In this document: piece by piece, positions 3,812 to 24,472 of the stretch
Position numbering within the stretch: position 1 is the stretch's first letter
How the letters are laid out: each line of letters opens with the position of its first letter
Source of the DNA: an uncultured Chloroflexia bacterium
GTDB lineage: Bacteria > Chloroflexota > Anaerolineae > B4-G1 > SLSP01
Direction: 5' to 3'
DNA: 43,499 nucleotides
Assembly (NCBI GenBank): GCA_963751345.1
Contig: CAVVUS010000017.1
Coordinates: 1 to 43,499 of the forward strand
The notes under the pieces: model-generated
Told to the model about the DNA's origin: nothing
Databases searched by the model: none
The model's input: only the letters and a program-made list of their open reading frames with translations
Translations under genes and position numbers: made by a program

Positions 3812-3819
3812 GCTCACCC

Positions 3820-5022: not shown

Positions 5023-5038
5023 AAGCCCTCTCCAAGCT

Positions 5039-5655: not shown

Positions 5656-5702
5656 CGGAGAATGAGGGGAGATCCTCGGGCAAGGCCATCTGCTGCCGGA
5701 GA

Positions 5703-5763: not shown

Positions 5764-5906
5764 GACCGCCGGCGAGCCAACTCATTTCCGAGAGTCTCCG
5801 CCGTCTCTGCACTTGGGGGCAGGTAAGCCGGCTCCAGGGCCAGGGCATCTGACCTTGCAGGAAGCTGTGATCTTCTGACTGCGTTTGGAGGCGTGACAAA
5901 GGTGAG

Positions 5907-6563
5907 ATGACATTGCCGAAGAAGCCCTCTCCAGAGGATACTGCCAACCAGGTCGCGAAGACCTTCTTCGGGGTCGGGGACGACCCGGCCTCGACCCGGG
6001 CCGCCGTCCGGAGGCTGCTCCTTGCCGCCCTCGAAGTGGCCGTCCTGATCCCTGCGCTGTTCTACCTGCGGTTTGGCGCGGTCGGCGGGTTGGGTTGGGG
6101 CATGACCGTCTTCTTTGTGGTCTACTGCCTGCTGGCGGCGGTGGGTCTGCACTTCCGGTCGAAGACGGAGTACCACACCCCTGTCGCGCTCCGCGGCGAT
6201 TGGCTCGACCGGATCGGGGCGTTCTGGTTGGTCGCCTGTGCGTTTGGGCCGTTGTTCGGATGGATGATCACGTCCGCTCTCCCGCTGACGGAGACAAGCT
6301 GGCGTTGGCTGTACGCACTTCGGGTCGTGTTGGCTGCAGGGCTGCCGCTGATCACGGCCCTGCCGGCGACGCGCTACCTCAGGGGCAAGGCGACGCTCGT
6401 GGGTCTGCCGATCCTGGTGATCATCACCCTGCTCCCGATCTGGAGTGTGACGAATGTCGCCCGCGATCTGTGGCAGGGCCCGGTTGTGTCCCGTGCTCAA
6501 GATACGGGACAGACTGAGCTGTATTTGCAGCACACGGATCGGTATCTGGGCAATCAGAGGTAG
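5907..6563 (+). CDS. Hypothetical integral membrane protein
   Basis: 218-aa ORF with several hydrophobic helices and a plausible RBS. Confidence 0.65.
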   Translation: MTLPKKPSPEDTANQVAKTFFGVGDDPASTRAAVRRLLLAALEVAVLIPALFYLRFGAVGGLGWGMTVFFVVYCLLAAVGLHFRSKTEYHTPVALRGDWLDRIGAFWLVACAFGPLFGWMITSALPLTETSWRWLYALRVVLAAGLPLITALPATRYLRGKATLVGLPILVIITLLPIWSVTNVARDLWQGPVVSRAQDTGQTELYLQHTDRYLGNQR

Positions 6564-6572
6564 AGGCGGTCC

Positions 6573-6740
6573 TAGTGGTCAGTCAAGTTGATAGCGTAAA
6601 ATGTTTCATCCTGAGCGGGCGCTCACCGCGTGGGCGTGCGAAGGATCTCAGTCCCGCAAGGCACAGATCCTTCACGTCCCCACGCTGAGTGGGGCACGTT
6701 CAGGATGACAGTTTCCACAAATCAGCTTAACTGAGCACTA
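6573..6740. mobile_element. MITE-like element, family C, copy 1
   Basis: 20-bp terminal inverted repeats (TAGTGGTCAGTCAAGTTGAT / ATCAGCTTAACTGAGCACTA, 17/20 match) around a TCATCCTGAG...TCAGGATGAC core; copy at 24311-24472, partial copy at 38046-38112. Confidence 0.7.
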
Positions 6741-6813
6741 CCAACCCGTTCGGTGGGGTGCCCCTGCTGCTGGTGTGTACGCGGCACCGCGGTCCTCAGG
6801 GCGTAGGCACCAC

Positions 6814-6963
6814 GTAGAGACGTGGCGGTGCCACGGCTTCTGAGCGCAGCACCTACGGGGCGAAGACAGAAGATGTCCCGGCGGGATGCCTGTATGCGAC
6901 GTGACGCTGTCCGGCGTCCGCCGCTTGTGTCGCCGGAGACGTGGCACCGCCACGTCTCTACAG
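6814..6963. repeat. Inverted pair of GTAG-type REP elements
   Basis: GTAGAGACGTGGCGGTGCCACG (6814) and GAGACGTGGCACCGCCACGTCTCTAC (6936); 27 bp recur identically at 27108-27134. Confidence 0.75.
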
Positions 6964-7031
6964 CGGGGAAGGTCGACTTAGGATCGGGTCACAGCGCCGC
7001 CGTCCGGCGCGACATCAGGGAGGTGAGTGAG

Positions 7032-7722
7032 TTGAGCGACAAACGGCTCGCGGGCTATCGGGTTGCGCTCTGGGTGAGCGGCGTCATTATCGTGGCGATG
7101 TTGGCCGTGTCCACGTATGCGTGGTTCCGGATCCCCGATGGGGCGCAGGTCTGCACCCATTGGAATGCCGCCGGTGTCTGTGACGGGCACGGCGGCAAGT
7201 TCGTGGGGCTGTTTCTGATGCCGATCATCGTGGCCGGGGTGGTGGGGCTCTTTGCTGCCATCCCGCATATCGAGCCGCGCCGCAGTTCACCTGCGCCAAT
7301 CGGCCAGGGCCTATGTCGCGGTGTGGATGGTGATGCTGCTCTATTTCCTGGCGTTACACATCATCCTGACGCTCAGCGTGCTCGGCGTCGCGGTCGACAT
7401 CGGCTCGCTCGTGCCGCTCCTCGTAGGGCTGATGTTCGTCGTGATCGGCGCCTTCCTCGGCAGGGTGAAGAGCAACTACATGATGGGCATTCGCACGCCC
7501 TGGACGCTGTCGAGCGAGTTGTCGTGGAAGAAGACGCACCGGCTGGGCGGGTGGCTGTTCATGGTGGAGGGGGTGCTGGTCGCGGTGGGCGCGATTGCGT
7601 CCCGGGGCCCGCTGTGGGTGTATTTGTTGATGGGCAGTATTGTGGTGCTGCTGGTCACCGTGACCGTCTATTCGTACATCGTGTGGAAGGGCGATCCGGA
7701 GCGGACGTCGGGCGACACATAA
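7032..7722 (+). CDS. SdpI/DUF1648 family membrane (immunity-like) protein, frameshifted near 7280
   Basis: THWNAAGVCDGHGGK (DUF1648-like) and SNYMMGIRTPWTLSSELSWKKTHRLGG (SdpI signature). Confidence 0.85.
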
Positions 7723-7825
7723 GCGCCGTGGGGAAGGGCAGTACGGACCTCGATGCTTCCCGAAAGGTTCTCCCACGTCCAAATGCGATAGCCCGAATGC
7801 TTACGCTGCCCTACCGGGGTAAGCC

Positions 7826-8461
7826 TCACGTCTTGAGGTTCAGAACTTCTTCGTCGGCCAGCAGCTTCTGCAGGAGCGCCTCATGTGCTGCTGCGGGTCC
7901 GTTCAGCAGCCACCGGCACCTGATGGTCTGCTCCAACTTGGTGATCCTCTCCGAGTAGATACGAAGATGGTGGGCGGTGATGTAGGCCCGCAACTCCTCG
8001 ACCAGAGCGGGACGCAGCACGGTGGTCACCTCATAGATAGCTCGGTAGTGCCCCCGGGTGATCAGCCGCTCAATCTGGGGGAGGGCCGCGAGGACGACCA
8101 GCGCGACGACGGTGGCGCAGAGCGCCAGGACAACCCGGTCGCTGCCGACGGCCATGCCGATGGCCGCCACGATCCAGATGGTGGCGGCGGTGGTGAGGCC
8201 CCGCACCTGTCCACGCTGGTGAAGGATCGCGCCGGCACCCAGGAAACCGACGCCGCTGACGATCTGCGCCGCGATCCGACCGGGGTCGCCGGTGGTGCTC
8301 AGGCGCCGGGAGAGCACGGTGAAGAGGGTGGCCCCCACGCAGATGAAGGTGATGGTGCGCAGGCCGGCAGCTTTGTCGTGGAGCTCACGCTCGGCGCCGA
8401 TGATGCCCCCGAGGAAGAGCGCCAGCACCAGCTTGAGCACATCATCCCAATTGACGGCCAT
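7826..8461 (-). CDS. MgtC/SapB family protein
   Basis: IGAERE...AAGLRT, DPGRIAAQIVSGVGFLGAG, GLTTAATIW motifs. Confidence 0.92.
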   Translation of the reverse strand: MAVNWDDVLKLVLALFLGGIIGAERELHDKAAGLRTITFICVGATLFTVLSRRLSTTGDPGRIAAQIVSGVGFLGAGAILHQRGQVRGLTTAATIWIVAAIGMAVGSDRVVLALCATVVALVVLAALPQIERLITRGHYRAIYEVTTVLRPALVEELRAYITAHHLRIYSERITKLEQTIRCRWLLNGPAAAHEALLQKLLADEEVLNLKT

Positions 8462-9234
8462 AGTACCGATCCTTTCTGCTGTGCCCCCATTATCACGGAG
8501 AGCGGCCCCGGCACAAGGGCGAGCGACGATCCGCGTGTGGCCAGGTGCCCATCCGGCGTGATGGCCTCAGCCGGATCGAAGCGGGCGCCCAGATCGCCGG
8601 CCGAGCCGGCCAGGGCATAGCTTGCCGTCGTTAGCATACCGGTCACGGTCGCCAGGGCGTCGGTGTTCCGCTCCACGAAGCAGAGCTCTCCTTCGTGTTA
8701 GTAAGATATTGGGTATATTAATAGTCTAGCTATCCGAAGGAGTGTGTGTGTTAGTGCAACCACAGGTGCCATCGCGCTGACGCTCATCATCTTGCTCATC
8801 GTCTTCAGAAAACGGATTGGCGAGCTTCGAGCCGCCGCCGCGCTGATCGTCTCTTTTCGGCCCATTTTCGGCAAGTGCCAGGTAGAGACTGTCCAGTCAT
8901 CACTGAAGTTGTTTCTGAGATCCGTCATCCTTTGCCTCCGCGAGGAGCGTGGCGACAGCAGGATCTGTGCCACGACAGTCACAGATCCCGGGCCTATGGC
9001 TCAGGATGACCCCTACACCCTGTAGGCAGACTGTCGACTACGGGCGAGCGGCCGTTGAGATCGCGCTTCGCTCAGACGAAAGGACCGGCTGCGGCAACGA
9101 CGGAAGGTCTCGTCGAAGTAACCCCCGATGCGCTACTGATGCGGCGCGTCCGTCCCTTTTCTGCAGCCTGCGCTGCCGTTGTAGAGATGGGGTGCCGCAC
9201 GCCCTAGAGCTGCCACGATTCTGACCTCAGCCTG

Positions 9235-9269
9235 AGACACACGGCTGCCACCCCGGCAGCCGTGTGTCT
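9235..9269. terminator. Strong perfect hairpin upstream of the phage-like operon
   Basis: 15-bp stem AGACACACGGCTGCC/GGCAGCCGTGTGTCT with 5-nt loop; no clear U-tract. Confidence 0.35.
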
Positions 9270-9426
9270 GTTCCCGGCGAGCGGACCTTCGGGGCGAGCC
9301 CACGTCTGCCCGGGCCGGAACCTCCCAAGAGTCTTGCTCCTGCCGAAGTTATCCCCTTTTTCGCCCCGTAATCCCCAACATCTAGGGGTTTTCTCCACAG
9401 TTGACCACGAAATGTGGGGTGGAGGC

Positions 9427-9455
9427 TTGATTGGATAGAACATATGTTCTAATAT
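9427..9455 (+). promoter_or_regulatory. Sigma70-type promoter with overlapping LexA (SOS) box
   Basis: TTGATT (9427-9432), 17 bp, TAATAT (9450-9455); perfect 16-bp palindrome TAGAACATATGTTCTA (9436-9451) matching the GAAC-N4-GTTC Gram-positive/Chloroflexota-type SOS box. Confidence 0.8.
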
Positions 9456-9566
9456 GGAAGTATATGGACGACAAAGACGGCAGAGGAGGGGCCTTGTGGA
9501 AGTGGGACGGTATTTCGCGATTGATCTATACGCTGGGCTTCCGCGTGGCCCGCAGGGTGGTGATTG

Positions 9567-10123
9567 ATGGACCTCGATCGCCCCGGCGGGCCACGTCATT
9601 GTACGGCGACGAAGCGGGATGGGACGCCCTGCAAGGCTTGGGCGGTGCGGGGCAGCGATCCGCCCCGCTGTCCGGCCCACGCAGGAGCGCCTCTCGGGGC
9701 AAGGCCCCGCGACGACTGCGGGGCAAGCGTGCGGCGTCCCGGTCTGTGCCCCCTGCGGGCGACGAGGAGATGGTTCCGCTTCAGATGACGTATGTCGCCC
9801 CGAAGACGCCGAAGAAGCTCCTCGTCGGTGACGCCCCGGATCTCCCCACGGAAATGCCGTCGATCGATGAGGTCCTGATCGACCTGGCGGGCAGGCAGGC
9901 GCGGCTGTCCTTGCTCATCGAGAAGTGCATCAAGGATGAGACTCAGAATGTGACGGTGGCCGAGGTGTTGCGTCTCTTTGCGCTGCACGGCCAGAACGCG
10001 AGCCGGCTGGGGCGGCTACTGCGCGATCGCCTGGCGATACAGTCCGAGTCGGGTGATGAGTTCCCCGACGAACTCGCGCAGGTCTACGACGAGCTGTCGA
10101 GGCGGCTCGGGGTCGAGCTATAG
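9567..10123 (+). CDS. Putative terminase small subunit (HGGxSTG-like Cys/His N-terminus), frameshifted near 9700
   Basis: CTATKRDGTPCKAWAVRGSDPPRCPAHAG zinc-finger-like motif in one frame, helical C-terminus in another; lies directly upstream of TerL. Confidence 0.55.
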
Positions 10124-10138
10124 CTCAGGAGGCCGGGA

Positions 10139-11725
10139 TTGATCGCACGTGGGTACTACCGCTGGCTCTGTGAGTCACTGACCGACATCTCGGGCTTCAG
10201 CGAGCATATCGTCCGGCGCCCGCTGCGCGGCTATCAGTTGCGACCGGCGGCGGCGATCATGCACTCGATCCTGGAGAGCCGCGGCCTCACGTTCGCCGTG
10301 ATGATGTCGCGCCAGGCCGGCAAGAACGAGCTCTCCGCGCAGTTGGAGGCCTATCTGATGAACCTCCACGTGCGTGCCGGCGGCGGGATCGTGAAGGCGT
10401 CGCCGACCTTCAAACCGCAGACGCTCAACTCCATCATGCGGCTGACCGACCGGCTGGACAACGCCTGGAACGGGCGCAGGCACAGCGCGTTCCGTTACCG
10501 GCGCCGCGACGGCTACATCGTCGAACTCGGTGCCGCCCGCGCGTTTTTCTTCTCCGCAGAGCCCTCCGCCAACGTCGTCGGCGCCACCGCCTCGGTGCTG
10601 CTCGAAGGCGACGAAGCCCAGGACATCCTGCAGGCCAAGTGGGACAAGGATTTCTCTCCGATGGGCGCCTCGACCAACGTCACGACGGTCCTCTACGGCA
10701 CGGCCTGGACCTCGGAGACGTTTCTGGCGCGAACGATCGCCCACCTGGAGCAAGCTCAGGCCCGCGACGGTGTGCAGCGCGTCTTCAGGGTGACCGCCGA
10801 CGAGGTGGCTGCTGAGGTGCCGGCCTACGGCGCCTACGTGGCCGGCCAGGTGGCCCGTCTGGGTCGCGACCACCCCCTGGTGCGCACGCAGTTCTACCTC
10901 GAACCCATCGATGGGAGCGGAGGGCTCTTTCCCCCGGCCCGCAGGGCCCTGATGCACGGGGACCACGCGCGCCGCCACGACCCCGAGCCGGGTCACCGCT
11001 ACGCGCTGCTGATCGACGTGGCGGGCGAGGACGAGGCCGAGGGGAATGCGCTGGACCGGCTGATGCTTGCGAATCCACGCCGCGACGCCACCGCGTTGAC
11101 CGTGGTGGACGTGGTCGTTGAGCGCCGCAGGGGCGCCATCCCGCGGGGCTGCACCGCGACGGGAGCCGGCCTCGCCGAACGCCGTTTCCTCGTCGTCGAC
11201 CGGCTGCTGGCCTTGGGCACCCGCCACACCACCCTCTACGCAAAAATCCTCGCCCTCGTGGAACACTGGCACGCCGCCTGGGTCGTCGTCGATGCAACCG
11301 GGGTCGGCGCCGGCCTCGCGTCCTTCCTCACTCGCGCCCTCGGGGACCGTGTGACCCCCGTCGAGTTCTCGCCCAACGTCAAGAGCGATCTCGGCTGGGA
11401 CTTCGTCGGCCTCGTCGAAACCGGCCGCTATCAGGACTACGCCGCCGACGCCCGAGCGGACTCGGGTTCCCCCGATACCCGCCAGTTCTGGTATGAGGTC
11501 GAGGCTTGCACCTATGAGGTCGCGCAGGGGCCCGGCAAACGCATGCGCTGGGGAGTCTACGAGTCCCCCGCCTATGACGGCCTCGTCGCCCGTGGACACG
11601 ACGACCTGCTGATCTCGGCCGCCCTGTGCACCGTGGTCGACAAGCTGGCTGTGCCCGGCGATGCCGTCGGCCGCGCCCTCTTCCAACCGGATCCGCTGGA
11701 GGAAATAGACCGTGGTGAATGGTGA
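10139..11725 (+). CDS. terL: Phage terminase large subunit
   Basis: AGGAGG RBS; Walker A MSRQAGKNE, Walker B LLEGDEAQ, nuclease acidic motifs LLIDVAG, VVVDATGVG, GHDDLL; uninterrupted 528 aa. Confidence 0.88.
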   Translation: MIARGYYRWLCESLTDISGFSEHIVRRPLRGYQLRPAAAIMHSILESRGLTFAVMMSRQAGKNELSAQLEAYLMNLHVRAGGGIVKASPTFKPQTLNSIMRLTDRLDNAWNGRRHSAFRYRRRDGYIVELGAARAFFFSAEPSANVVGATASVLLEGDEAQDILQAKWDKDFSPMGASTNVTTVLYGTAWTSETFLARTIAHLEQAQARDGVQRVFRVTADEVAAEVPAYGAYVAGQVARLGRDHPLVRTQFYLEPIDGSGGLFPPARRALMHGDHARRHDPEPGHRYALLIDVAGEDEAEGNALDRLMLANPRRDATALTVVDVVVERRRGAIPRGCTATGAGLAERRFLVVDRLLALGTRHTTLYAKILALVEHWHAAWVVVDATGVGAGLASFLTRALGDRVTPVEFSPNVKSDLGWDFVGLVETGRYQDYAADARADSGSPDTRQFWYEVEACTYEVAQGPGKRMRWGVYESPAYDGLVARGHDDLLISAALCTVVDKLAVPGDAVGRALFQPDPLEEIDRGEW

Positions 11726-11840
11726 CCTTCTCGCCGCACTGGCATTCTCGGCCGGCTGTGTCGTCGGCCTCGCTTTCCCGAACCTGTTCGGAGTCTTCGC
11801 CCTGTCCGGCCGCATCACTGACCACGAACGCCTGCACTGA
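11712..11840 (+). CDS. Small hydrophobic peptide (42 aa), not in the ORF track
   Basis: GGAGG about 9 nt upstream of GTG; MVNGDLLAALAFSAGCVVGLAFPNLFGVFALSGRITDHERLH; overlaps the terL stop. Confidence 0.4.
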   Translation: MVNGDLLAALAFSAGCVVGLAFPNLFGVFALSGRITDHERLH

Positions 11841-11900
11841 TGGTGACGCGTGATGACGCAGACTCCGGTCCAGATCTGCTGTCACCACAGGAGGTCATAT

Positions 11901-13314
11901 CTGAGCCGTCTCACTGACGCCGTCGCTGTTCTGTTAGGTCGAGACGTTCGACCCCACGTGTACAACCGCCGCCGTCTCCGTCGCCGTCGACGACTCGCCC
12001 GGCTGGCAGGGCGTCAACCCCGCCCCCGGGGATCGCCCCTGGGGAGACATCTACGCCGACCTCGTCGACGCCCTCGACGCCTGGCGCAAGAACTTTATGG
12101 TCCGCCGTATCGTCGGCCTGACCCGGTCCTATACGGTCGGATCCGGTCTCACCGTCTCATGCGGCATCGAGGAGGTCGCCGAGTTTATAGACGTCTTCTG
12201 GAATCACAGCCAGAACAACGTCAGCCGGCGACTCGGGGAGATCTCCGATGCCCTGACACGCGACGGGGAGCTGTTCCCGATCCTGTTCACCAACCCCATA
12301 GACGGCATGAGCTACCTGCGCTTCAAATCGGCCCGCCAGATCCGCGAGATTGTCACCAAGCCCGACGACTTTGAGACCGTGCTATCGTTCACAGAGAACA
12401 CCGTCGCCCAGTCCCCGCGGTCCTGGATCTCGCCGGCCAACGACGCAGGCCGAGACGCTCCCGCTGCAGCCCGTGATGCTGCACTGGGCAGTCAATAAGC
12501 CCATCGATGCCACCCGCGGAGAGTCCGACCTTACCCCGATCCTACCATGGGCCCTCCGCTACTCCGAATGGCTGAAAGACCGGGTCCGCCTGAATCGCCT
12601 CCGCACCCGTCAAGGCATGCTCGACGTCGAGGTCGCCGACGATACCCAGGTTGAAGCCAAGCGCGCCCAGCTCCGCACAGGCAACCCCATCGACGCCGGC
12701 ATCTACGTCCACGGCCCCGGCGAAACCGTCACCATGCACAATCTCCAGATCAACGCCGATCGCAGCGAGGAGGACGGCCGGGTCCTGCGCCTGGCCATCG
12801 CTACAGGGTCCTCGCTTGCGCTGCACTACCTGGGAGAGGGGGAAGGCACCAACTACGCCACAGCCCGGGAGATGGGCGAGCCCACCGCCCGCTTTTTCCA
12901 GGACCGGCAGCAGCGCATCATCTGGTATCTGCACGACCTGGTCACCGTGGCCTACCGCCGCTATTGCGTTGTCCAGGGGATCACGCCGCCCGAGGATCTG
13001 CAGCTACAGACCAGTCCGTCACCGAGGTCGCCAGAGCAGACAACCAGAGCATAGCCTCCGCCACGTTGAGCATCGTCCGCGCCCTCGCCATCAGTGCCCG
13101 CCAGAACTGGATCGACGACGAGACCGCCTTGTCGATCGCCCTCAAGTTCGCCGGCGAGAACTACACCATCGAGGAGATCCGCGACATCCTGGCCACCGCC
13201 CGCAGCGAGGATGGAGACGACGACGCCGACGTCGACGTCGACGGGATCCCGGCACCACTGACGACGAACAACCGGTCACCGACGAGCAGGAGCCTTCCGA
13301 GTGACCTTGCATAA
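11901..13314 (+). CDS. Phage portal protein (several frameshifts)
   Basis: AGGAGG at about 11889; stitched frames give about 460 aa with portal-like segments (ALTRDGELFPILF, RGESDLTPILPW, HYLGEGEGTNYATAREM); position after TerL; start codon uncertain. Confidence 0.7.
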
Positions 13315-13389
13315 TGGCGCCAGCCTACTCCCCGATCGCCGGCGAGCTGGGGATACCCTGCCACCACTGGCGACACAGACGCCGGCATT

Positions 13390-13734
13390 TTGACGCCTGC
13401 GCGCCGGCATCCTGTCACCACTGGCCCGGCTGCCTACCTTGAGTGGACCAACTCCAACCCTAACCCCGCGTCTATCTGTGACATGTGCCTGCCGTTCATC
13501 GGCACGATATGGGAGCCCGGCACCGAGCCGCCCTTGCCCTTGCACCCGCACTGCTATTGCGCCTACTTCCCCACCGATCGCACACCCGCCCAAGGTCGTC
13601 CGCTGCCCGACGTCGACAGCCTACCGCCCAACGTCCGCGCAGCCTGGATCCGCTACACCGCCTGGCTCCTGCGCCTGGGTATCGTCCTGGTCCCCTTCCT
13701 GCTGCAGTTCGAGGAGGAGGCCCGCCAGTCATAA
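13390..13734 (+). CDS. Short minor head morphogenesis protein (Mu gpF/SPP1 gp7 C-terminal-like)
   Basis: ICDMC...PPLPLHPHCYC motif resembles the conserved HPNCRC motif; located between portal and protease. Confidence 0.6.
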   Translation: MTPARRHPVTTGPAAYLEWTNSNPNPASICDMCLPFIGTIWEPGTEPPLPLHPHCYCAYFPTDRTPAQGRPLPDVDSLPPNVRAAWIRYTAWLLRLGIVLVPFLLQFEEEARQS

Positions 13735-13759
13735 CCGTGACCACGAAGGAGATGAGTCT

Positions 13760-14445
13760 ATGCCCGGAACTGACCCGCAACCCGATGCACCCGGTACCTC
13801 GCCCATCAGCGACATCGACGCGCTTTCCTCGCATGCCCGCCACTGCCCGCCGGCCGCGTGCTCCTGGAGCCCGCCGAATCCGACGGCCGCCACGAGTACG
13901 CCTGCGCCTTCACCGCTGCCGGCCGCGTCAAACGCTCCGACCAGCAGCCCGCCGACTGGCTCATCCCGGCATCCGCCCTCGCCCAAGCCGCCCCCCTCTA
14001 CGACGCCCGCCCTTCCTACCTCGATCACCCCGACCTCTTCGGCTTTGGCTGGCATCAGGAGCCCAAGGTCTCGCGTCTCGTCGGCGTCACCTTCAACCCG
14101 CGACTGGTCCCCCGAGGAGGAGACCGTCCTCGGATCCCTCAGGCTTTACGACAAGGCGCCCGGGTCGCCCTGGGCACTTCGTCGGCGCCCTCTTCGACCA
14201 GATCCTCAGCGACAAAGCCAAGGGCCTGGCCGTCCCACCCATCGGCTTATCGGCTGTCTTCTTCCACACCACCCACCTCGACGAAGACACAGGACTCAGG
14301 ATCACAGACGCCATCGACTACGTCGAATCCGTCGACGTCGTCTATGATCCCGGCGCGGCCGGCTATGTCCGGGAGGCCCTCGCCGCCCTCAGACCCAAGC
14401 ACCTATTACCCGGCCGCCAATCTCACACCAGCAGGAGGACCCGCA
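13760..14445 (+). CDS. Prohead maturation protease domain (frameshifted, possibly fused to capsid)
   Basis: AAGGAG RBS and ATG 13760; YLDHP, IGLSA and VESVDVVYDPGAAG motifs resemble phage prohead serine proteases; lies just before the capsid gene. Confidence 0.6.
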
Positions 14446-15761
14446 ATGCCCGAAGAACTCGAAGCCATCACGCACCGAAGCAACCCCACGGCCCCGGCAC
14501 CACGGCCCCCGCGCCCGCGCCCGCGCCCGCAGTCCCGGCCGCGTTGACGCACCGCCTTGCCGCCCTCGAAGCTCAGCTGACCCGCCTCACCCAGGCTATG
14601 ACCAGCCTCGCCGAGGATCGCACCATCCACAGCGTCGAGAATCCCGTCCGCTCGATGCAGTCCTCGCTTGACCAGGTCACCACCGCCATCGAGGCCATGC
14701 TTGCCGGCGTCCGCCCGGCCGGCGGCATCCCGCCGCTGTCCGGCGTCCGCGAGCTCTACACGCTCCTCTCCGGCGACTTCGAGATGACCGGGATGTTTCA
14801 CCCCGATCGCGTCTATCTCGCCAACGTCAACACCTCGACCATGGCCGGTCTCGTGGCCAACGCCCTGAACAAGCGGGTCGTCAATCAGTACCAGGAGTAT
14901 CCCAAGTGGTGGGAGGCTGCAGTCACCGAAGAGGACTTCGCCAACCTCCAGGAAGTGAAGTTCATCACCCTAGGCGGGATCGGGGAACTCCCCACCGTCG
15001 CAGAGGGTGCCGTCTACACCGAACTCACCTGGGACGACCAGACCGAGACCGCAACCTTTATCAAGAAGGGTGGATATCTCGGGCTCACGATGGAGGCCAT
15101 CGACAAGGACGACACCCGCCGCCTGCAGGCGGCTCCTCGCGCCCTCGCTCAGGCTGCCTGGCTCACGCTCGGTAAGACGATCGCTGCGCTCTTCACCGCG
15201 AACTCCGGCTATGGTCCGCAGATGTCCGACACCAACTATTGCTTCGACTCCTCCAACCACGGCAACCTCGGAGCGTCCGCCTTCTCCCACGCCGCGTGGG
15301 TCGCAACCAAGGTCGCTATGATGAAGTTCGCCGAGTTGAACAGCAGCGAGCGGCTTTCCGCCCTCACCAAGCCCCATCTGCTGTGGGTCCCCGTCGACCT
15401 GGAGGACGCAGCTGTTGCCGAACTCGCCTCCGGAGAGGGTCAGGTCGGATCCGCCGACTACAACGTCAACGCCGACGCCCTGGCCAATGCCTTGACCGAT
15501 CGCCTCGGCCGGGCCCGCGAACGTGTCATCGTCTGCCCCTTCTGGACCGATACCGCCGACTGGGTCGCCCAGGCGGATCCTCGCCTCTACCCCGGCCTCG
15601 GTCTCGGCTATCGCTATGGTCGTGTCCCCGAAGTCTACAGCGTGGCCAGCCCCACAGCCGGCCTCATGTTCACCAACGACACGATGCCCATTAAGGTCCG
15701 CTTCTTCTTCGCCGCAGGGCTCACCGACTACCGGGCCTGGTACAAGCACATCGTCTCGTAG
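14446..15761 (+). CDS. Major capsid protein, Mu gpT-like, with N-terminal scaffold-like region
   Basis: AGGAGG and ATG 14446 (frameshift near 14500); VANALNKRVVNQY, ELPTVAEGAVY, GGYLGLTMEAIDKDDTRRL...PRALAQAA pattern of Mu gpT-like/HK97-fold capsids. Confidence 0.8.
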
Positions 15762-15763
15762 CA

Positions 15764-15987
15764 CGTAAGCGCGCTCTATCGCTTACGCGTGATCTCACCG
15801 CGGGGCTAACGCCCCCGCAGAAAGGGGAACAGCCGGACGTGATGCACCTATACTTGTGTGAACAACTTCACACACGTCATCGAGCGATGATGGGGAAATG
15901 TCCTACCCGCTCACGTCCGGCGCCCTTCCCTGTCGTGGTGACACCGATCGCGCTCGAGGAGCTGCAGGCCGTCACCACTCACGTCCG
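15764..15987 (+). ncRNA. Candidate structured intergenic RNA after the capsid gene
   Basis: Six complementary pairs in about 220 nt, including the 11-bp GCCGGACGTGA/TCACGTCCGGC stem that encloses two hairpins. Confidence 0.35.
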
Positions 15988-15998
15988 CTAACTTGCTA

Positions 15999-16033
15999 AC
16001 GTTCACACGTTTTCACGTTCTCACGTTCCAACG
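15999..16033 (+). repeat. ACGTTCNN octamer tandem array before an RBS
   Basis: ACGTTCAC-ACGTTTTC-ACGTTCTC-ACGTTCCA; a second array lies at 16889-16962. Confidence 0.7.
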
Positions 16034-16044
16034 AGGAGGTCCCA

Positions 16045-16404
16045 ATGTTCCGTCCGTTCTGTCACACCATCGTCGTCCCCGGCACCCTCGCCGCGGCTGT
16101 CCAGTACACCTGGACCGCCCCCATGGATTGCACGCTCCAGCACGTCTAGCATGGTGCAGTCCAACGCCGGCGACGGCCGGATCAAGATCGGCACGTCTGC
16201 CGATGATGACATCTTCCTCAGCTACACCGACAATGGGCCAGTCCGGCACGCCCGTCGAGGTCGTCGGCGCCGGCGGGCTTCCGCGGCGCCGCCACCCCCC
16301 GCATCAAGAAGGGGGACATCGTCAAGCTCAATCTGGACTACGACGGCGCCTCCGGCACCGCTGCCGCCGATGCTGTCATCGTCCTGACGTTCGAGGAAGG
16401 GTAA
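16045..16404 (+). CDS. Small beta-rich virion protein (capsid decoration candidate), frameshifted
   Basis: GAGGAGG and ATG; stitched about 118 aa MFRPFCHTIVVPGTL...IKIGTSADDD...LNLDYDG...IVLTFEEG; directly after the capsid gene. Confidence 0.55.
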
Positions 16405-16510
16405 GCGTAGACGGCGCGCCTCAGGCCTGCCGCCGCCTCCCGTTCGCCGTGGCGACATGCTCACCGGCTGGACCCGGAGGCGTGTCGCCACACTCAAAAG
16501 GAGCGCACCT

Positions 16511-16889
16511 ATGCCCAGTCTTCTACAACGTGCCGTCCTCGAATTAGGGATCGATGTACCCGTCTACCGCTAAAGCCGAGAGAGACGAGAGGGGGTGATC
16601 GTACTCTATCTCTATGGCGGCCGTGTCGTCGAGTGGACCCCGCCAACCTTGCCCGGAATGGAAGACGTCGAGAAGGTGGAGACAGCAAACACCGCTGGCC
16701 AGGCCCAGTCACCATCGATGATTTCACGTCGTTCCCGGGATCGGCGACGTCTCGGCCCAGGCCCTCACGCGTGCCGGCTTCCGCACCTTCGACGATCTCG
16801 CTTCCGCCCCCGATGACGACCTGAAGGCCGTCCTCACCGGCTACGCCTTCCGCAAGCTCAAAGACTGGCTGTACGTCAACCGGTCCTAA
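16511..16889 (+). CDS. Helix-hairpin-helix domain protein, frameshifted
   Basis: AAGGAG and ATG; stitched C-terminus DDFTSFPGIGDVSAQALTRAGFRTFDDLASA is an HhH motif. Confidence 0.55.
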
Positions 16890-16971
16890 CGTTCACACCC
16901 AGTCTGCTGGGCCACGTTCCAACGTTCACACGTTCGCCCTGAGTACCTCTCACGTTCCAACGGAGGTCCCT

Positions 16972-17438
16972 ATGATCATCGATAAGACCAAGCCCGAGCC
17001 CGAGCCCGAGCCCGGCACAGCCTACGCCTTCCCGCCTATCAACGTCGTGGTCCCTGACCAGCAGAAGCAGCAGCTCTACCAGGCGATCATGACCCTGATC
17101 ACCGTCGTCCTGTCCATCGCCCTGACCCTGACCGCCCAGGTCATCAGCCAGGCCGTCGACACCAACGCCCGAGCCCGTGCCCGGCACCAGGCTGCAGACC
17201 CGCTCCAGACGCTGGGTACGTCCCACTTCCTCGACCTCGCTGTCACCGGCGACCTGGCGTCGACGTCGGCACTGACCTCACAGCCGGAGGAGACGCCGCC
17301 ATCACTGGCGACCTGTCTGCTGACGCTATCACTGGCGCTTCTCTTGTCGTCAACTCGTCACGCCGTCCTCACCCAGTCGCCGCCATCACTATCACCGGAG
17401 TGCTCACCGACGTCGTCATCCTGTACCACCAGAACTAA
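16972..17438 (+). CDS. Membrane-anchored protein with short beta-repeat C-terminus, frameshifted
   Basis: GGAGG and ATG; TM segment AIMTLITVVLSIALTLTA; stitched tail VTGDL-GVDVGTDL-TAGGDA-AITGDL ending at TAA 17436-17438. Confidence 0.5.
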
Positions 17439-17470
17439 GGTACCAACGGCCGACCATCCAACATGTCCAC

Positions 17471-18019
17471 GTGAACACTTTCTCCTACTGCTGCGCGTCC
17501 CAACGCTCGGCCGTCTCCAAAGCCGCGGGCGTCGAACCCCTCACCTCGCCTCCGATGCACTTCGAGGCCTTCGACGCCCGCTTGCTTGAGAACCGCGATC
17601 TGCTCTACTTCGCCCTTCACGGCCTGCCCGATCAGCCCTACTGGTACGGAGACGACTACCTCACCGCCCTGTCCGTCGACGCGTTCCACGGCCTCAATCT
17701 CCGCCAGTGCACCGTCTTCGTCGCCAACTGTCACTTCACGGCCTCGCCCTTCCTGCCGGCCATCCAGGCCTGTCGCCCGCGCGCCATCATCGCCGGCAGC
17801 GGAGAGAACTACGCCCGCTCAGCCTCCCTCGTCGGTCCCCATCTCCTGGGCTACTACCTGCGCCTCGCGCCTACAAGCCGGCCTCCCGCCCCGCTCGCCC
17901 TCGCCGCCGCCAAGTTCCGCCTGCAGGTCACAACCAACCGCCTCAAGAACCGCACCGACAAGCGCACCACCGAGGATCTCGCCGCCAACCTCGACGCCCT
18001 CCAATTCGAGCTGCTCTGA
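17471..18019 (+). CDS. CHAT/caspase-like (clan CD) cysteine protease candidate
   Basis: DLLYFALHG and TVFVANCH with CHAT-like spacing (His-Gly...Cys dyad), followed by AIQACRPRAIIAG. Confidence 0.55.
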   Translation: MNTFSYCCASQRSAVSKAAGVEPLTSPPMHFEAFDARLLENRDLLYFALHGLPDQPYWYGDDYLTALSVDAFHGLNLRQCTVFVANCHFTASPFLPAIQACRPRAIIAGSGENYARSASLVGPHLLGYYLRLAPTSRPPAPLALAAAKFRLQVTTNRLKNRTDKRTTEDLAANLDALQFELL

Positions 18020-18050
18020 CCTTTGGGGTTTTCCGAGACCCCAAAGGTCT
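18018..18050. repeat. REP-like family B copy inside the phage-like operon
   Basis: GACCTTTGGGGTTTTCCGAGACCCCAAAGGTCT, same arms as the copies at 5703 and 24503. Confidence 0.8.
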
Positions 18051-18068
18051 TCCCAAAGGAGGAACACC

Positions 18069-18435
18069 ATGCCTTACCCGGTCACCCAGTACAACGAACC
18101 CGTCCTCACCGCCGCCACGATCGCCGCCTCGGCATCGCTCAGCGACGCCGTGCGCCTGCCCCCCGGCCACGTCCTCGTCGGCATCGTCATGCCCGCCACC
18201 TGGACCGCCGCCGATCTCACCTTCCAGTTCTCCGCCGACAACGTCACCTACCAGAACGCCTATGACGCCGCGGGCACCGAGTTAACCGTCACCGGCACCG
18301 CCGCCGCCACCATCCCCGTCGATCCCCTCTACTTCCGCTGCGCCCCCTTCCTCAAGGTCCGCTCCGGCACGGCCGGCACGAGCCGTCGCTCAGGCTGCCG
18401 CCCGCTCGATCGGCCTCGTCTCCCGGCCCATGTAG
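18069..18435 (+). CDS. Phage-type beta-sandwich protein, paralog 1
   Basis: AGGAGG and ATG; ATIAASASLSDAV...VGIVMPATWTAADLTFQFSADNVTY...FLKVRSGT. Confidence 0.65.
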
Positions 18436-18458
18436 CAACGTAAACCGGAGGCTGACGC

Positions 18459-18823
18459 ATGCCCTACCTGGTCACCGCCGACACACCCGGCCGCGTCCAC
18501 ACCGCCACCATCGCGCTCAGCGGATCGCTCAGCGGCGCCGTCGCCATCCCGCTACACTCACACCCTGGTCGGCCTCGTGATGCCCACCGCCTGGGACACC
18601 GCCGACCTCACCTTCCAGGGCTCCTTCGACGGCACCACCTACGCCAATCTCTACACGGACGGCGGCACCGAGGTCAACGTCCCCACCGCTGCCGGCCGCT
18701 CCATCTACGTCAACACCGCCGAACTACGCGCCTATCCCTACCTCAAGATCCGCTCCGGCACCCAGGCCACACCCGTCGCTCAGACCGCCAGCCCGCGTCA
18801 TCACCCTGATCTCGCACCCGTAA
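18459..18823 (+). CDS. Phage-type beta-sandwich protein, paralog 2, frameshifted
   Basis: GGAGG and ATG; ATIALSGSLSGAV...VGLVMPTAWDTADLTFQGSFDGTTY...YLKIRSGT, clearly paralogous to the upstream gene. Confidence 0.65.
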
Positions 18824-18893
18824 GGGGCCCGTAATGGCGACACCGGCCTCCGGATGGCCACGTCACCACGCCTCCGTGAAAGGAGCCCCGCCG

Positions 18894-20763
18894 ATGCAGC
18901 TCTGCACCAATCCCAGCTTTGAGCAGCAATGGACCGACCTACCGCCCGTCGGCACCCTCACCAACCAGCAGCCGGCCGGCTTCTCGCTCACCATCCGCCC
19001 GCTCGGCACGCCCTTGCTCAGCACCGGCTACACCCCCGACGATCCGCCCCGCTTCGAGGTCGTCGCCCTGATCCCCGAGTGTGTCCACAAGCTGCGCGCT
19101 CAGATGCCCGACGCAGATCGCCGCATCCTCGACGGAGACGTCTCGTTACAAGATCTTCGGATCCGGTCCCTTCAGCGTCGACCTCGCCTATCCTTGCATC
19201 GTCCTCAGCCGGCACTCGTCAATATCGCCGTCCCTGTGGAAGTGCACAACCACGGCGACGGCTCCCCGGGAGCTGCTGTCTGGCGCCTCATCGTCGACAT
19301 CGCTTGTCTTTCCCTGGCGCACCTTCGGCGCCGGCTTCTCTGACCGTGAGTGGACCACCGAGACCTACTGCCCTGCACTGCGACGCGAACACCCGCCTCA
19401 CCGTCACCCTGCAGGTGAGGGTCGCGCCACACCCGGCGCCCCCATCGACTTCTTCACCGATGCCTGGTACATCGACCTGACGCCCGATCCCGACAGCCCG
19501 AGCCCCGAGCCCGAGCCTGCGAACGCAAGCCCCTGGCGAATGGTTCGACGCCTTCGGCTACGTGGTCGACTTCGATCTCATCACCGATCCCGCCGCCCGT
19601 CTCGCCTACTACATCCAGGCTTGCAGCGAAGGTCGCGTCATCGGCCCGTCTCACGATCACCTCGCCACCTGGCCACCCGGGGCCCGGTCCTACACCGTCA
19701 CCCTGCCCGGCATCCCTGTCGATCGCCGCTCCGCATTCACCGCCTACTATGCCAACCTCAACCCCCGGATCGCCCTGCGCTACGTCGACACACCCGCAGA
19801 GCCCCGCCGGATCCTCCTCTTCCTCCGGATCCCGAGCCCCCGCCCCCGCCCGTCACACCCCCGCCCCTGTGGCGGCCCGCAAACTACGTTCCTCGAGGAA
19901 CGAAGCTGGGCTTTCACGGCGTCGGGCGATGGAGGACAGTCCGATAAGATCTTCGCCCCCCTGTTGCCCCTCGGAGCCGCCCCGCCCACCGCAAAGGTCA
20001 TCGTCTCGCTCGGCGCTGCCGGCGACATCCTCCGCGAGGCTGATCGCGCCAGACCGGAGCCACGCCCGCCATCGTCGGCCGGCTCATTGATGCGCCTGGC
20101 CTGGGCAACCTGGAGTGGTGGAGATCCGACCTTGACCAACGCTGGCAGGCAGAAAAGCGCATGGCCGAGCTTATGCCTCGCTGGGAGCCCTTCCGGCAGC
20201 ACTACCGCTACTGGGAGATCATCAACGAGCAGAACCCGCCCACACCCGAGGCAGCCGCCGCCCAAGCCCGCTTTATGATCCACTGCATGGACATCGCGGA
20301 GGCCAACGGCTACCACCTCGCGCTCTGGTCTCACTCCGTCGGCACCCCCGAGCCCTGGGCCTGGGATGCCTGCGCCCCCACCGGAGTCTTCGAGCGCGCT
20401 GCAGCCGGTGGCCACGCTATCGCGCTGCACGAGTACGGCGACGTCAACCTCAACCTCGGATCCCACCTCGGCCGCTATCGTGACGTCTACACCCGCCACA
20501 TCCTACCCCGCGGCCTCGACATCCCCCTCTACATCACCGAATACAACCTCTGGCGCGAGACCCTCGGCTACGTGGATAGTGGGTATCTGCTGGATCAGTG
20601 GATCCGCTACGACGCTCTGGTCTCCACCGATCCTTACGTCGCCGGAGTGCACATCTACAGCGTCGGCATGGTGCACGACCTCTACGTCCAGGCTATCTAC
20701 GACCTCTACCCCCGCCTTCCGCGACTACGCCGTCAGCGTAAAGGAGCGATCAATGGACACTAA
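18894..20763 (+). CDS. Multidomain clan GH-A glycoside hydrolase with CBM-like N-terminus (many frameshifts)
   Basis: N-terminal NPSFE motif, Pro-rich linkers, TIM-barrel motifs KLGFH, YWEIINEQ (acid/base), ALHEY, PLYITEY (nucleophile). Confidence 0.65.
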
Positions 20764-21304
20764 CGGCATCCCTCGCGCGGTCGTCCTTCCGCCTCCCATG
20801 AAGAACCTCGAAAAGCCTTGGTACGAGGCAGCCCACCTCGGCCCCTACAACTACCACCCCGAACGCTGCGAAGACTGGAATCTCGAATCGATGGGGAACA
20901 CCGACCTCGGCGAACCCCTGGTCGCGCCCTTCTCCGGCCTGGTCCTGGCCGCGGCCAACTACGGCGGAGGCACCGGTCGTGTCTGTCAGATCCTGGGGAT
21001 CACGCCTTCCGGCGCCTTGATCGTGTGGGGAGGCTGGCACCTTCACTCGCTCTTCGTCGCCGCCGGCCTGGTCGTCGAGGTCGGCGATCCCATCGGCACC
21101 ATCGGCAACGCTGACGGCCGCTATGCCGGGGCCCACCTCCACGAGCAGATCTGCATGTCGTCAAATCTGCCAGCGGCATCCCCGCCCCCACCACCTTTGC
21201 CTCAGACAACCGCTATGCCTGGCAGCAGCCAGTCCCGCTTCTACCTCGACCACGGCGTCGACCCCGACCTCATCCGCCACGTCACCCTCATGGACGGCCA
21301 ATGA
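20753..21304 (+). CDS. M23 family metallopeptidase
   Basis: AAGGAG and ATG; YHPERCEDWN, GEPLVAPFSGLV, VEVGDPIGTIGN...AHLHEQI (HxH). Confidence 0.75.
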   Translation: MDTNGIPRAVVLPPPMKNLEKPWYEAAHLGPYNYHPERCEDWNLESMGNTDLGEPLVAPFSGLVLAAANYGGGTGRVCQILGITPSGALIVWGGWHLHSLFVAAGLVVEVGDPIGTIGNADGRYAGAHLHEQICMSSNLPAASPPPPPLPQTTAMPGSSQSRFYLDHGVDPDLIRHVTLMDGQ

Positions 21305-21403
21305 CGTGGTGACAGAGCCCCGACGATCGTCGTGATCACGATCCCTTTGTCACCATCCGCAACTCCACACGTCGGACACGTTCCCACCTCCCAGGAGGCT
21401 ACC

Positions 21404-22058
21404 GTGAGCTACACACTCGCCACCTTGAGAGACCGCGTCGAACTGCAGCTTTCCGACGTCACCAACGCCCGCTACTCCACCGACGACCTCGACGAAGGCA
21501 TCCGCCAGGCCCTCAACGCCTACACCGAACACCTGCCCCTCCACGCCGTCGGCACCGTGGAGCTTGCCGCTGCCGGCCGCGAGATCGACGTCTCTTCCCT
21601 CACCTACCGCACCATCGACCGCGTCTGGTGGAACTACGACGAGGACGCCCCCGACCACCCGCCCCACTGGCGCAACTTCGACGTCTGGCCCGGAGATCTG
21701 CTCTTCATCAGTGATCCCGAGGAACCCGCCGGCGGAGACGTCGTCCGCATCTTCTACACCACCGACCACACCCTTGAGGACCTCGACTGCGCCGCAGGCG
21801 ACCACCTTCCCCGACGCCGACGCCTCGCTCATCGCCCAGGGCGCCGCCGCCTTCACCGCCCTCGCCCGTCGAGCCCACATCGCCGAAGAACTCAACGACA
21901 ATGAGTGGGCCCCCCGCAACCTCAAGGAGTGGGTCGAGGCCCGTCTCGCCGACTTCTACCGCCAACTCGATGTCCGCGCCCGCCAGGCTGCCGCCCATGC
22001 TGCAGGCATCGCCCCCGGCCCCTCCCTCGATCGCTGGGATGGTCTCAACGTCTGGTGA
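21404..22058 (+). CDS. Phage head-completion/adaptor-like protein, frameshifted near 21790
   Basis: AGGAGG and GTG; TLATLRDRVELQLSD...RYSTDDLDEGIRQAL N-terminal pattern typical of head-tail adaptors. Confidence 0.55.
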
Positions 22059-22336
22059 GGAGCGGCGGGCACCCGCGTTCGACGGGGCGGGTCAGACGGA
22101 CCAGTCTCTCAGATTGGCCCAATCGGGTACGTTTCGTCTCGGGGGATAAAGAAGGTCTCTGTCCACGGATGCAGCCGTAACCGCAAGGCGGAGATCCTGC
22201 ACTGAGTTCAGGATGACAACTCACGCCCATCCTGAAACGCACCCGCCCAATCTGGGCTATTGACAAGAGAGGAGGAATGCGTCAGGATGGGGGCAGGGAA
22301 TGGGAACGGTTGCTCGTGATAGAGAGGAGGCCGACC

Positions 22337-23367
22337 ATGGATTACACAGATTACCCGCGTCCCGTCGTGGAGGACATCGCGCGGCTCCGGCGGAGGATCA
22401 CCGCGTCCGGGATCCCTGAGAAGCACGTCGACGCCAACCTGCTGATCGGCACGTGGAACATCCGCGGCTTCGGGCGGGTCTTCGACGAGTGGACCGAGAA
22501 CCCCGGCAGCCCCAAGCGCAACCTGCGGGCGATGGCCTGCATCGCCGAGGTGGTGCGGCGGTTCGACGTGATGGCGATCCAGGAGGTGAAGCGCGATACC
22601 AGCGGGCTGCGGCTGCTGGTCGACGGTTTCCTGGGACCCAACTGGGGCGTGGTGCTGAGCGACGTGACGGCGGGCGACGCGGGCAACGGCGAGCGGCTGA
22701 CCTTCGTCTACGACAAGCGCCGCGTGACCCCCTCAGGGCTCGCGGGCGAGATCGTGCTGTCCGCCCACAGCCGACGGAACGCCTTCGGAGCAGTTCGATC
22801 GCACGCCCTTCATCGTGGGCTTCATGGCCGGTTCACCCGGGTCGTCGAAGGCCGAGCGCTTTGCGCTGCTCACGGCGCACATCAAGTACGGCAGCCGTGC
22901 CGGAGGACCGGCTGCCCGAGCTGCGCGCGGTCGCGGCCTACACCGCCACCGAGATCCGCGACCGGGCCACGGCGGGCGGCGAGGAGAACAACCTGATCGT
23001 GCTGGGCGACTTCAACATCGACGAGCGCGGCAGCAACCCGCTCTTCCAGGCCTTCGTCTCCTCGGGGCTGGTCGTGCCCGCCGGGCTGCTCAACCTGCAG
23101 ACCACGTACGGGACGAAGCCCAAGTACTACGACCAGATCGCGTGGTTTATGGGCGACCTCGATCTGCTGGTGACCCAGCGGGCGGGGGTGATCGACATCG
23201 CGGGTGCGGTCTTCCAGGAGCTCACGCTGTCCCAGATGTCCTACCGGGTTTCGGATCACTTCCCGGTCTGGGTGGAGTTCCAGATCGATCGGAGCACGGA
23301 GGTGATGGCGGAGACCCTCGGCGTGGATCCGGGCATGCCGGATCCATTGGGGACGGTGCCGGACTAG
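22337..23367 (+). CDS. Endonuclease/exonuclease/phosphatase (EEP) family protein, frameshifted
   Basis: IGTWNI, DVMAIQEV, IVLGDFN, YYDQI, VSDHFPVW motifs. Confidence 0.9.
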
Positions 23368-23653
23368 GGCAACAGCATAGGTGCTTTTCGAGAATAGGTT
23401 ACGAAGACACATGTTCCAGGCGGATCATGTCCCAGGGTACTGGGGGTGATCCGCCGGCTCTGCGCGCAGAGCGGCGGATCACAGATCCGCCTGGAACGGA
23501 GATGAGTGAGGATCTTACCCGAAAAGCTGCCCTGATCTGGCACTGGAGCTAGAGGCCGGAAGGCGGGAGCGAATGCCGGCTGTGGGATGGCGGATGGCGG
23601 GGGCCGGTTGGCTGCGTCGGCCAACTGGAAACTGACAACCGGTAACTCCCCGC

Positions 23654-24277: not shown

Positions 24278-24310
24278 AGGTTCCTCCCAAACAATCTGGT
24301 GTAACGCCCA

Positions 24311-24472
24311 GTGGTCAGTCAAGCTGAATGGTGCAAATGTCATTCTGAGCCGGAGGCGAAGAATCTTGGTCCTGTAGACATAGATCCTTCGCGCGCCCAC
24401 TGCGTGGGCGCCCGCACCCTTAAGGGCGCCCGCTCAGGATGACAGTCTCCACGAATCAGGTTAACTGACCAC
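24311..24472. mobile_element. MITE-like element, family C, copy 2 (carries the 18-bp insertion)
   Basis: Inverted ends GTGGTCAGTCAAGCTGA / TCAGGTTAACTGACCAC; homologous to 6573-6740. Confidence 0.7.

Follow-up and report, generated by a model that had tools for sequence, protein, structure and literature searches.

The DNA analysed here, referred to as the window, is a complete contig of 43.5 kb (43,499 nt; contig C17) from the genome bin G000 of an uncultured Chloroflexia bacterium, a bin of 5.4 Mb in 49 contigs with a completeness of 93% and a contamination of 5.6%. Homology searches with Pfam, PHROGs and tblastn place about 13 co-oriented genes on its plus strand at positions 9427-22058, all served by one promoter. 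These genes make up a phage-derived packaging, head and lysis module that runs from a small terminase subunit (TerS) to a head-to-tail adaptor and has no recognisable tail. The reading that we favour, though we would stop short of calling it likely, is that this is a grounded, selection-maintained module in which tail-less capsids and lysis enzymes would be produced under the control of the SOS response. An initial annotation of the same DNA had counted about 15 genes. The co-oriented operon that it described is there and its head genes lie where it put them (an intact large terminase subunit, TerL, then portal, capsid, M23 peptidase and, last of all, the adaptor), as Pfam, PHROGs and hhalign comparisons bear out; the count is nevertheless about 13, with the supposed gpF-like, protease and capsid genes forming a single fusion gene.

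The evidence for individual genes differs in kind (Table 1). The TerS assignment was made through the relatives L024 and L031, whose TerS proteins match PHROG TerS families, and the gene is a single intact frame in a closely related genome whose capsid protein is 94% identical to that of the window (the sister genome). Portal pieces that match phrog_10963 (1.9e-12) span 11944-13209 in three frames. In the fusion gene the C-terminal part corresponds to Phage_capsid_4 (6.5e-26) and to phrog_4523, 'major head and protease protein', while the gpF-like part is a weak match (phrog_1657, E 4.7e-4) and the protease call is indirect, relying on the N-termini of relatives (phrog_15531). The adaptor was recognised when a profile of the gene and its kin was compared with an adaptor profile from a second clade (hhalign probability 96%); L047, a member of that second clade, has an adaptor that matches Pfam SU10_adaptor at 6.4e-13.

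Table 1. Features of the module and its borders, in window coordinates
Feature	Position	Strand	Evidence and remarks
Hairpin, perfect 14-bp stem and 5-nt loop	9236..9268	+	Read directly; directly upstream of the module, left border
Promoter and LexA-type operator	9427..9455	+	Sequence; operator at 9436-9451
TerS-like gene, Cys-rich N-terminus	9564..10123	+	tblastn to relatives' TerS; frame shifts within ~9690-9780
TerL, intact open reading frame (ORF) of 528 aa	10139..11725	+	PHROG terminase large subunit; weak Pfam Terminase_6C
Portal	11850..13314	+	Three frames, shifts near 12435 and 13015; phrog_10963
Minor-head/protease-scaffold/HK97-fold capsid fusion gene	13390..15761	+	PF25209, phrog_4523, phrog_133; breaks at ~13710-13850 and 14103-14165
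Small head-associated protein, p123 family	16000..16404	+	tblastn; frame breaks
Helix-hairpin-helix (HhH) protein	16511..16883	+	Homologues match Pfam HHH_5
Remnant of a conserved 250-aa protein	17050..17460	+	~350 nt shorter than the sister copy
Candidate caspase/CHAT-like (clan CD) protease, intact, 182 aa	17471..18019	+	Alignment, model, Foldseek
Two tandem paralogues, ~120 aa each	18069..18834 (18069-18443, 18459-18834)	+	Cross-matches; tblastn
Glycosidase-like gene	18834..20763	+	Beta-rich N-terminal domain, Pro/Glu linker, TIM-barrel domain; several frame breaks
M23 metallo-endopeptidase	20756..21304	+	PF01551, phrog_7767
SU10/P22 gp4-type head-to-tail adaptor, last module gene	21332..22058	+	hhalign; frame change near 21800
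Endonuclease/exonuclease/phosphatase (EEP) family host gene	22277..23367	+	PF03372; right border, outside the module

Pfam and PHROGs offered no family for p123, the 250-aa protein, the ~120-aa paralogues or the glycosidase region. The p123 gene is frequently duplicated in relatives and its product is possibly a decoration protein. The glycosidase call was based on NEQN and ITEYN motifs read by eye in the translations. For the 182-aa protein, an alignment of five sequences from the phage family has an invariant His-Gly and an invariant Asn-Cys, and its model (pLDDT 88.9) matches SAVED-CHAT, Csx29 and separase in Foldseek with TM scores of 0.5-0.6; it is thus a candidate for a caspase/CHAT-like fold. 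In the truncated gene, window positions 17310-17467 correspond to 505 nt in the sister genome. An HNH gene that is present in some kin is missing from the window module. The hairpin at the left border has no T run and was absent from the output of a terminator scan.

Missing tail, integration and replication functions

The module had been described at the outset as head-only, with no integrase, replication gene or att repeats in its surroundings, and this description stands, for its head-only content also across the genome. All family matches of the 37 flank ORFs scanned in 1-9300 and 22277-43499 are to cellular families, integrase, replication and tail families being absent, and direct repeats shared by the two borders reach at most 10 nt, a length at chance level. 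A tblastn search of the 5.4-Mb genome with the relatives' hub, 683-aa and 756-aa proteins, integrases and replication proteins revealed neither a hub nor any further copy of TerL, portal or capsid; integrase homologues occur on other contigs only. The Pfam families Phage_capsid, Phage_portal and PhageMin_Tail had zero matches genome-wide, and the positive control PF25209 matched at the module locus alone. By family scans, tblastn and a hub profile, neither the module nor the genome contains a hub, tube, tape measure or spike. A single Phage_sheath_1 match lies at G000:C11:313519-313944 and is not linked to the module.

The hub profile just mentioned was derived from relatives of the window's clade, in which a conserved protein of 481-511 aa is encoded immediately after the adaptor or one gene further on. 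Our lead for this protein is a tail hub like gp10 of phage P22. It was modelled with low confidence (pLDDT 60, pTM 0.64), but the best nine Foldseek matches are all podophage tail complexes, at TM scores of only 0.26-0.41, and include Pa223, Pan3, the P22 tail hub gp10, Pam1, Sf6, HRP29 and VP1. The only lead for the family in the ESM Atlas is PF11134, the P22 gp10 family, at 0.87, and a sequence comparison of the family with the PDB returned no match. When the joint between head and tail is compared with that of P22 and SU10, the window is seen to have the adaptor and to lack the hub, whereas its kin hold both. The hub profile matched none of 22 genomes of the genus and is found in both capsid-positive genomes of another family. 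The idea that tails might be encoded elsewhere finds no support as far as the hub of this phage family is concerned.

The promoter and its LexA-type operator

The module promoter consists of TTGATT (9427-9432), a 17-nt spacer and TAATAT (9450-9455). It matches the consensus at 8 of 12 positions and was not among the promoters called by a generic scan. A 16-nt palindrome, TAGAACATATGTTCTA, at 9436-9451 fills the spacer and overlaps the -10 element. It is the sole GAAC-N4-GTTC in the window, yet at least one match to that pattern occurred in 34 of 100 shuffles; the perfect 16-mer is present in seven copies in the genome compared with the 0.07 expected from base composition. The genome has a single lexA gene and a single recA gene, and the promoters of both (TTGACA...TATAAT and TTGTAC...TATAAT, respectively) contain a box with one mismatch inside a 17-nt spacer flanked by good hexamers. 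The gene of an imuB-like Y-family polymerase has a perfect 16-mer in front of it, and a uvrD-family helicase gene and a radical-SAM/HhH repair-like gene are each preceded by a GAAC-N4-GTTC box whose ends are imperfect. Because the host's lexA, recA, imuB-like and uvrD promoters bear the same kind of box, the module operator appears to be of the organism's SOS type, and we infer that LexA binds there and that the module is inducible. This agrees with the LexA control proposed initially, to the extent that promoter sequences can reveal it.

Two further perfect LexA boxes directly precede FtsK/SpoIIIE-like genes (L070 and L073, at G000:C14:37207 and C27:62985), which are 42-46% identical to an FtsK-like gene (L068:5959-7422) in the mobile element of a complete relative. 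The copy on C27 is followed by a DUF6504 gene, and DUF6504 is also found fused to the imuB-like protein.

The initial annotation went on to regard the operon as host-owned, and here we disagree. Of the 31 relatives whose upstream sequence extends to 1 kb or more, about 20 have the box upstream of the module, usually between a -35 element and a -10-like hexamer, and in the sister genome the module box has one mismatch. Since the box recurs in this way, it is a trait inherited within the phage family and not a sign of capture by the host.

Conservation of the locus and selection on its genes

In the sister genome, on a contig of 894 kb, the module has the same genes on either side, and both flanks are collinear with those of the window. 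The sister carries an extra 21.7-kb cellular block just to the left of the promoter (between window positions 7718 and 9344) and an extra 9-kb cellular block further to the right (between 26452 and 26730), so both sides of the module are prone to insertion and deletion. The 18 ORFs scanned for the larger block gave matches to cellular families only, and 7 of the 17 ORFs that lie within it had no match. Homology to the sister resumes at 9254-9344, which is 90-180 nt before the -35 element, and the truncated left border is therefore common to the two genomes. The EEP gene at the right border can be taken as a host gene because its orthologues are present in eight members of the genus that have no capsid gene; in the four of these that were examined the EEP gene alone matches, and for that reason an empty site cannot be defined.

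Divergence from the sister genome was estimated by the Nei-Gojobori method. Synonymous divergence (dS) in the module is mostly 0.26-0.34 (0.12-0.42 over all segments), compared with 0.12-0.42 in the flank genes. The ratio of non-synonymous to synonymous divergence (dN/dS) is 0.17 for TerL, 0.08 for the portal, 0.11 for the capsid, 0.20 for the M23 peptidase, 0.21 for the caspase-like protein, 0.14-0.23 for the adaptor and 0.09 for part of the glycosidase gene (20161-20760); flank genes are mostly at 0.18-0.33, with a range of 0.12-0.47. Two further congeners, represented by 4.3-kb contigs, have intact ORFs for the portal (at least 375 aa), the fusion protein (659 and 669 aa) and p123, and differ from the window by a dS of about 0.7-0.8 at a dN/dS of 0.22-0.24.

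The wider phage family

A capsid query retrieved 29 loci, and a TerL query retrieved 8 genome loci and 13 viral loci. The relatives found with window proteins are Chloroflexota metagenome-assembled genomes labelled Anaerolineales, Ardenticatenaceae, 'Chloroflexia' and others. Some have the appearance of complete phages. The viral record G004 (27 kb, 94% complete according to CheckV) has an integrase, a DnaD-like replication gene, head genes, the 756-aa protein, the adaptor and the hub; the 46-kb contig L051 has an excisionase, an integrase, a DnaA_N-type replication initiator, ParM and FtsK-like genes; and on the contigs of two relatives a DNA polymerase gene follows the adaptor. Others are head-only. 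Units that run from TerS to the adaptor between cellular flanks are also found in L047 and in a third congener at another site, where only weak FKBP similarity (32-41%) to the window's site was detected, so a shared site is unsupported. At eight additional head-only loci, whose contigs measure 34 kb to 3.7 Mb, the 77 flank ORFs include no integrase or replication family, although one of these loci adjoins a tail-fibre-like S74 gene. Five more module-bearing contigs have no PF00589 match, provided that contig numbers follow accession order. Because the same head-only unit recurs in related genomes, the operon may be a retained particle-making device rather than debris.

Two loci deserve separate mention. 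A protein of 863 aa that is encoded at L052:362-2950 (minus strand), just upstream of an otherwise head-only locus, contains a Peptidase_S74 intramolecular-chaperone domain, a kind of domain typical of tail fibres or spikes. At L044:7300-15690 a portal gene and a capsid fusion gene are followed by M23, Dit-like and minor-tail genes of siphophage type, with no TerL gene upstream, and this is a different mosaic.

Discussion

A functional module kept by selection gives the best account of these observations because the truncated borders are shared with the sister genome, dS in the module equals that of its flanks while its genes are under strong purifying selection, and the extent from TerS to the adaptor recurs elsewhere. 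On this reading, which carries the same reserve, a temperate, short-tailed phage family of the Chloroflexota (P22/SU10-like) would have supplied the module as its arm for packaging, head formation and lysis, and this arm would now be fixed in the chromosome and kept in working order by selection. LexA would keep its single promoter closed, and DNA damage, by way of RecA-driven LexA cleavage, would open it. TerS, TerL, the portal and the protease-scaffold-capsid fusion would then assemble capsids, and these, as neither excision nor replication is open to the locus, would fill with chromosomal DNA cut in place. The cell wall would be breached by the glycosidase together with the M23 peptidase. 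The particles, bearing the adaptor with neither hub nor spikes, would consequently be tail-less. The titles and abstract openings that we surveyed in the literature contain no phage-derived particle system for the Chloroflexota.

Several observations weigh against this interpretation. No holin was recognised in the module. P22 heads that lack hub and plug lose their DNA, and particles with an adaptor alone may fail to hold theirs for the same reason. We have assumed that lexA and the module contig reside in the same cell, but the G+C content of the contig (0.658) exceeds the 0.62-0.63 that is typical of the genome, and there is the 5.6% contamination of the bin to consider. The initial annotation saw in a patchy distribution, with relatives carrying the same genes inside complete prophages, an argument against a host-maintained particle, and that is in part what we find: the shared site and low dN/dS (0.08-0.20 for the main genes against the sister) are accompanied by a capsid gene in only 4 of the 21 other genomes of the genus, and some relatives bear an integrase, replication genes, the hub or a polymerase. 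In a capsid tree (FastTree, 37 loci, query-anchored rows, midpoint root, with branching read without support values) the four genus members cluster together, while head-only loci interleave with loci that bear integrase, replication, hub or polymerase genes. Because the two states interleave, the head-only state may arise repeatedly by loss.

The state of the reading frames is a further difficulty. TerL is intact, as annotated initially, but many other genes are split across frames. Compared with intact homologues, the window has some 12-15 frame breaks (one in TerS, two or three in the portal, three or four in the fusion gene, two each in p123 and the HhH gene, and one each in one paralogue and the adaptor) as well as the gene that is about 350 nt shorter. 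When net frame changes were counted per 40-nt cluster between window and sister, there were 38 in 10.7 kb of module and 10 in 10.3 kb of coding flank, a 3.5-fold excess that could reflect real decay.

These frame breaks, the deletion of about 350 nt, the excess of frame-changing differences over the flanks, the patchy distribution and the existence of complete-looking relatives such as G004 and L051 all favour an inert cryptic prophage remnant, the rival that survives best and one that we nonetheless regard as unlikely. Its integrase, replication and tail genes would have been deleted, the rest would be decaying, and the low dN/dS would mostly record an earlier time as an active phage. Both borders, however, are common to the sister genome, so that the truncation predates a split at a dS of about 0.3, and yet dN/dS values since then are 0.08-0.20; over all comparisons, the further congeners included, they are 0.08-0.24, which speaks against decay. 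The same extent from TerS to the adaptor recurs independently. The sister genome has about six frame breaks of its own, mostly at positions other than those of the window, and intact ORFs are present in the two congeners. Moreover, both assemblies appear to be error-prone, with frequent indel errors, because host genes are broken as well: rpoB is split in two frames (G000:C10:143888-147659), in the window a DUF1648/SdpI gene (~7250), the EEP nuclease gene (22760 and 22896; intact in the sister, at 375 aa) and a major facilitator superfamily (MFS) transporter gene (~36200) are split too, and host coding sequence has the ten frame changes counted above. Most breaks in the module are probably artefacts, but real recent decay may have contributed. 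The indels relative to the sister lie outside long homopolymers, and many are paired alignment noise, which is why net frame changes were counted instead. Only one public DNA run contained part of the window, with 8% of sampled words, and at 90% likeness it yielded short contigs of a related strain, one of which lacks the base at 14102, the site of a frame change in the window; this fits assembly error or its opposite equally well. Were the module inert, it would still provide a clean example of assembly indel errors that mimic or mask pseudogenes.

A helper-dependent satellite is a less probable alternative. Phage-inducible chromosomal islands that form capsids (cf-PICIs) of Proteobacteria and Firmicutes are described as encoding TerS, TerL, portal, protease, capsid and head-tail adaptor with no tail or holin (PMC10085698, in the part available), and in Firmicutes the capsid is described as fused to the protease (PMC10085698; bioRxiv 10.1101/2025.02.11.637232, likewise in part). 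The capsids that they release are reported to be tail-less and filled with DNA, and to combine with free tails afterwards (bioRxiv 10.1101/2025.02.11.637232). The module has the same set of genes and the same capsid-protease fusion, with no tail and no recognised holin, and may work like a cf-PICI. As a satellite it would make its own DNA-filled capsids with adaptor and depend on a complete relative in its phage family for hub and spikes, and perhaps for mobilisation; its last gene is precisely the adaptor, to which a borrowed tail would have to fit, and complete kin have the putative P22 gp10-like hub right after that gene. Against this, podoviruses assemble their short tails step by step on the portal instead of attaching pre-assembled ones. 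The family hub is found in none of the 22 genomes of the genus, a search that lytic helpers would escape, and there are no att repeats. Co-divergence with the flanks and the chromosome favours a fixed locus, the adaptor is of podovirus type, the host is a member of the Chloroflexota, and sequence kinship with cf-PICIs is limited to general phage folds. The module also lacks an integrase, a regulator (AlpA/MerR) and a primase-replicase, which are core cf-PICI parts in the available portion of PMC10085698. Its lack of integrase and replication genes, together with its fixed position, places it outside the cf-PICI family.

Direct control by LexA has precedents, one of which bears on the satellite alternative. 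In the sources as available, host LexA acts directly at the promoter of the packaging operon (operon I) of Staphylococcus aureus pathogenicity islands (SaPIs; PMC5052747) and at a promoter of the tectivirus GIL01 (PMC4551915). In contrast to both, the box described here fronts a whole head and lysis operon and is conserved in a Chloroflexota phage family, and no co-repressor of the gp7 type was identified. In the podophages P22, Sf6 and SU10 the head-to-tail joint has an SU10-type adaptor like that of the module, and the modelled hub of the kin resembles those of P22 (gp10), Sf6, Pam1, Pan3 and Pa223; the window has no hub, plug or spike. Defective lactococcal prophages are chromosomal and are described as releasing tail-less particles (PMC8752148, in part), but they are near-complete siphophages, whereas the module lacks all tail, integration and replication parts.

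It is improbable that the module is a strict gene transfer agent (GTA), one that would serve its host by packaging chromosomal DNA at random and delivering it to related cells. In common with GTAs of the RcGTA type it is a phage-derived structural cluster with no integration or replication genes, a single stress promoter of host type, a syntenic, fixed site and signs of purifying selection; the titles and abstract openings surveyed include no GTA report for the Chloroflexi, which we count in its favour. Known GTAs, however, have tails, and the module has none, so a delivery route is not evident. GTAs are inherited throughout a clade, whereas the capsid gene is present in 4 of 21 congeners; the head-only loci are not clade-like on the capsid tree, and the same-genus copy in G025 has a capsid (69% identity) as distant as those found in another family (70-72%). 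With its patchy distribution, the interleaving on the tree, a LexA box that comes from the phage family and no evident delivery route, the module stays well short of a demonstrated GTA. A complete small phage with unrecognised tail and replication genes in or near the module is very improbable: p123, the 250-aa remnant and the two ~120-aa paralogues have no family match and might conceal such genes, but the flanks are cellular and syntenic with those of the sister, the hub of the kin is missing, and two former unknowns turned out to be the candidate caspase-like protease and the glycosidase-like protein instead of tail parts.

If the selection-maintained module is active, it would show that selection can retain a capsid machine that makes heads only and does not move, that an entire morphogenesis and lysis operon can be gated directly by host LexA, and that either the cf-PICI strategy of a capsid without a tail or tail-less gene transfer exists far outside the Proteobacteria and Firmicutes. 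Complete and head-only forms occur side by side in one family, which makes it a ready test case. A bolder proposal, which we put forward as speculative and rather doubtful, is that elements of this sort, integrase-less, tail-less, LexA-triggered, extending from TerS to the adaptor and equipped with wall-cutting enzymes of their own, form a widespread class in the Chloroflexota (Anaerolineae and kin). After DNA damage they would package the chromosome in place, starting next to the operon, release DNA-filled heads, and be maintained by selection in several lineages as a tail-less counterpart of GTAs or lateral transduction.

Other features of the window and its genome

A second, partial rpoB-like match lies on another contig, at G000:C14:95412-96104, and may represent contamination or a fragment. 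GC skew is strongly negative (-0.1 to -0.31) over the module (window 11000-22000) and positive in both flanks. Short sequences resembling repetitive extragenic palindromes or miniature inverted-repeat transposable elements occur in the window at 1095-1360, 5697-5813, 23446-23498 and 24310-24400; they are present in many copies, on both strands, in the window genome and the sister genome, and the copy at 23446-23482 matches itself in reverse.

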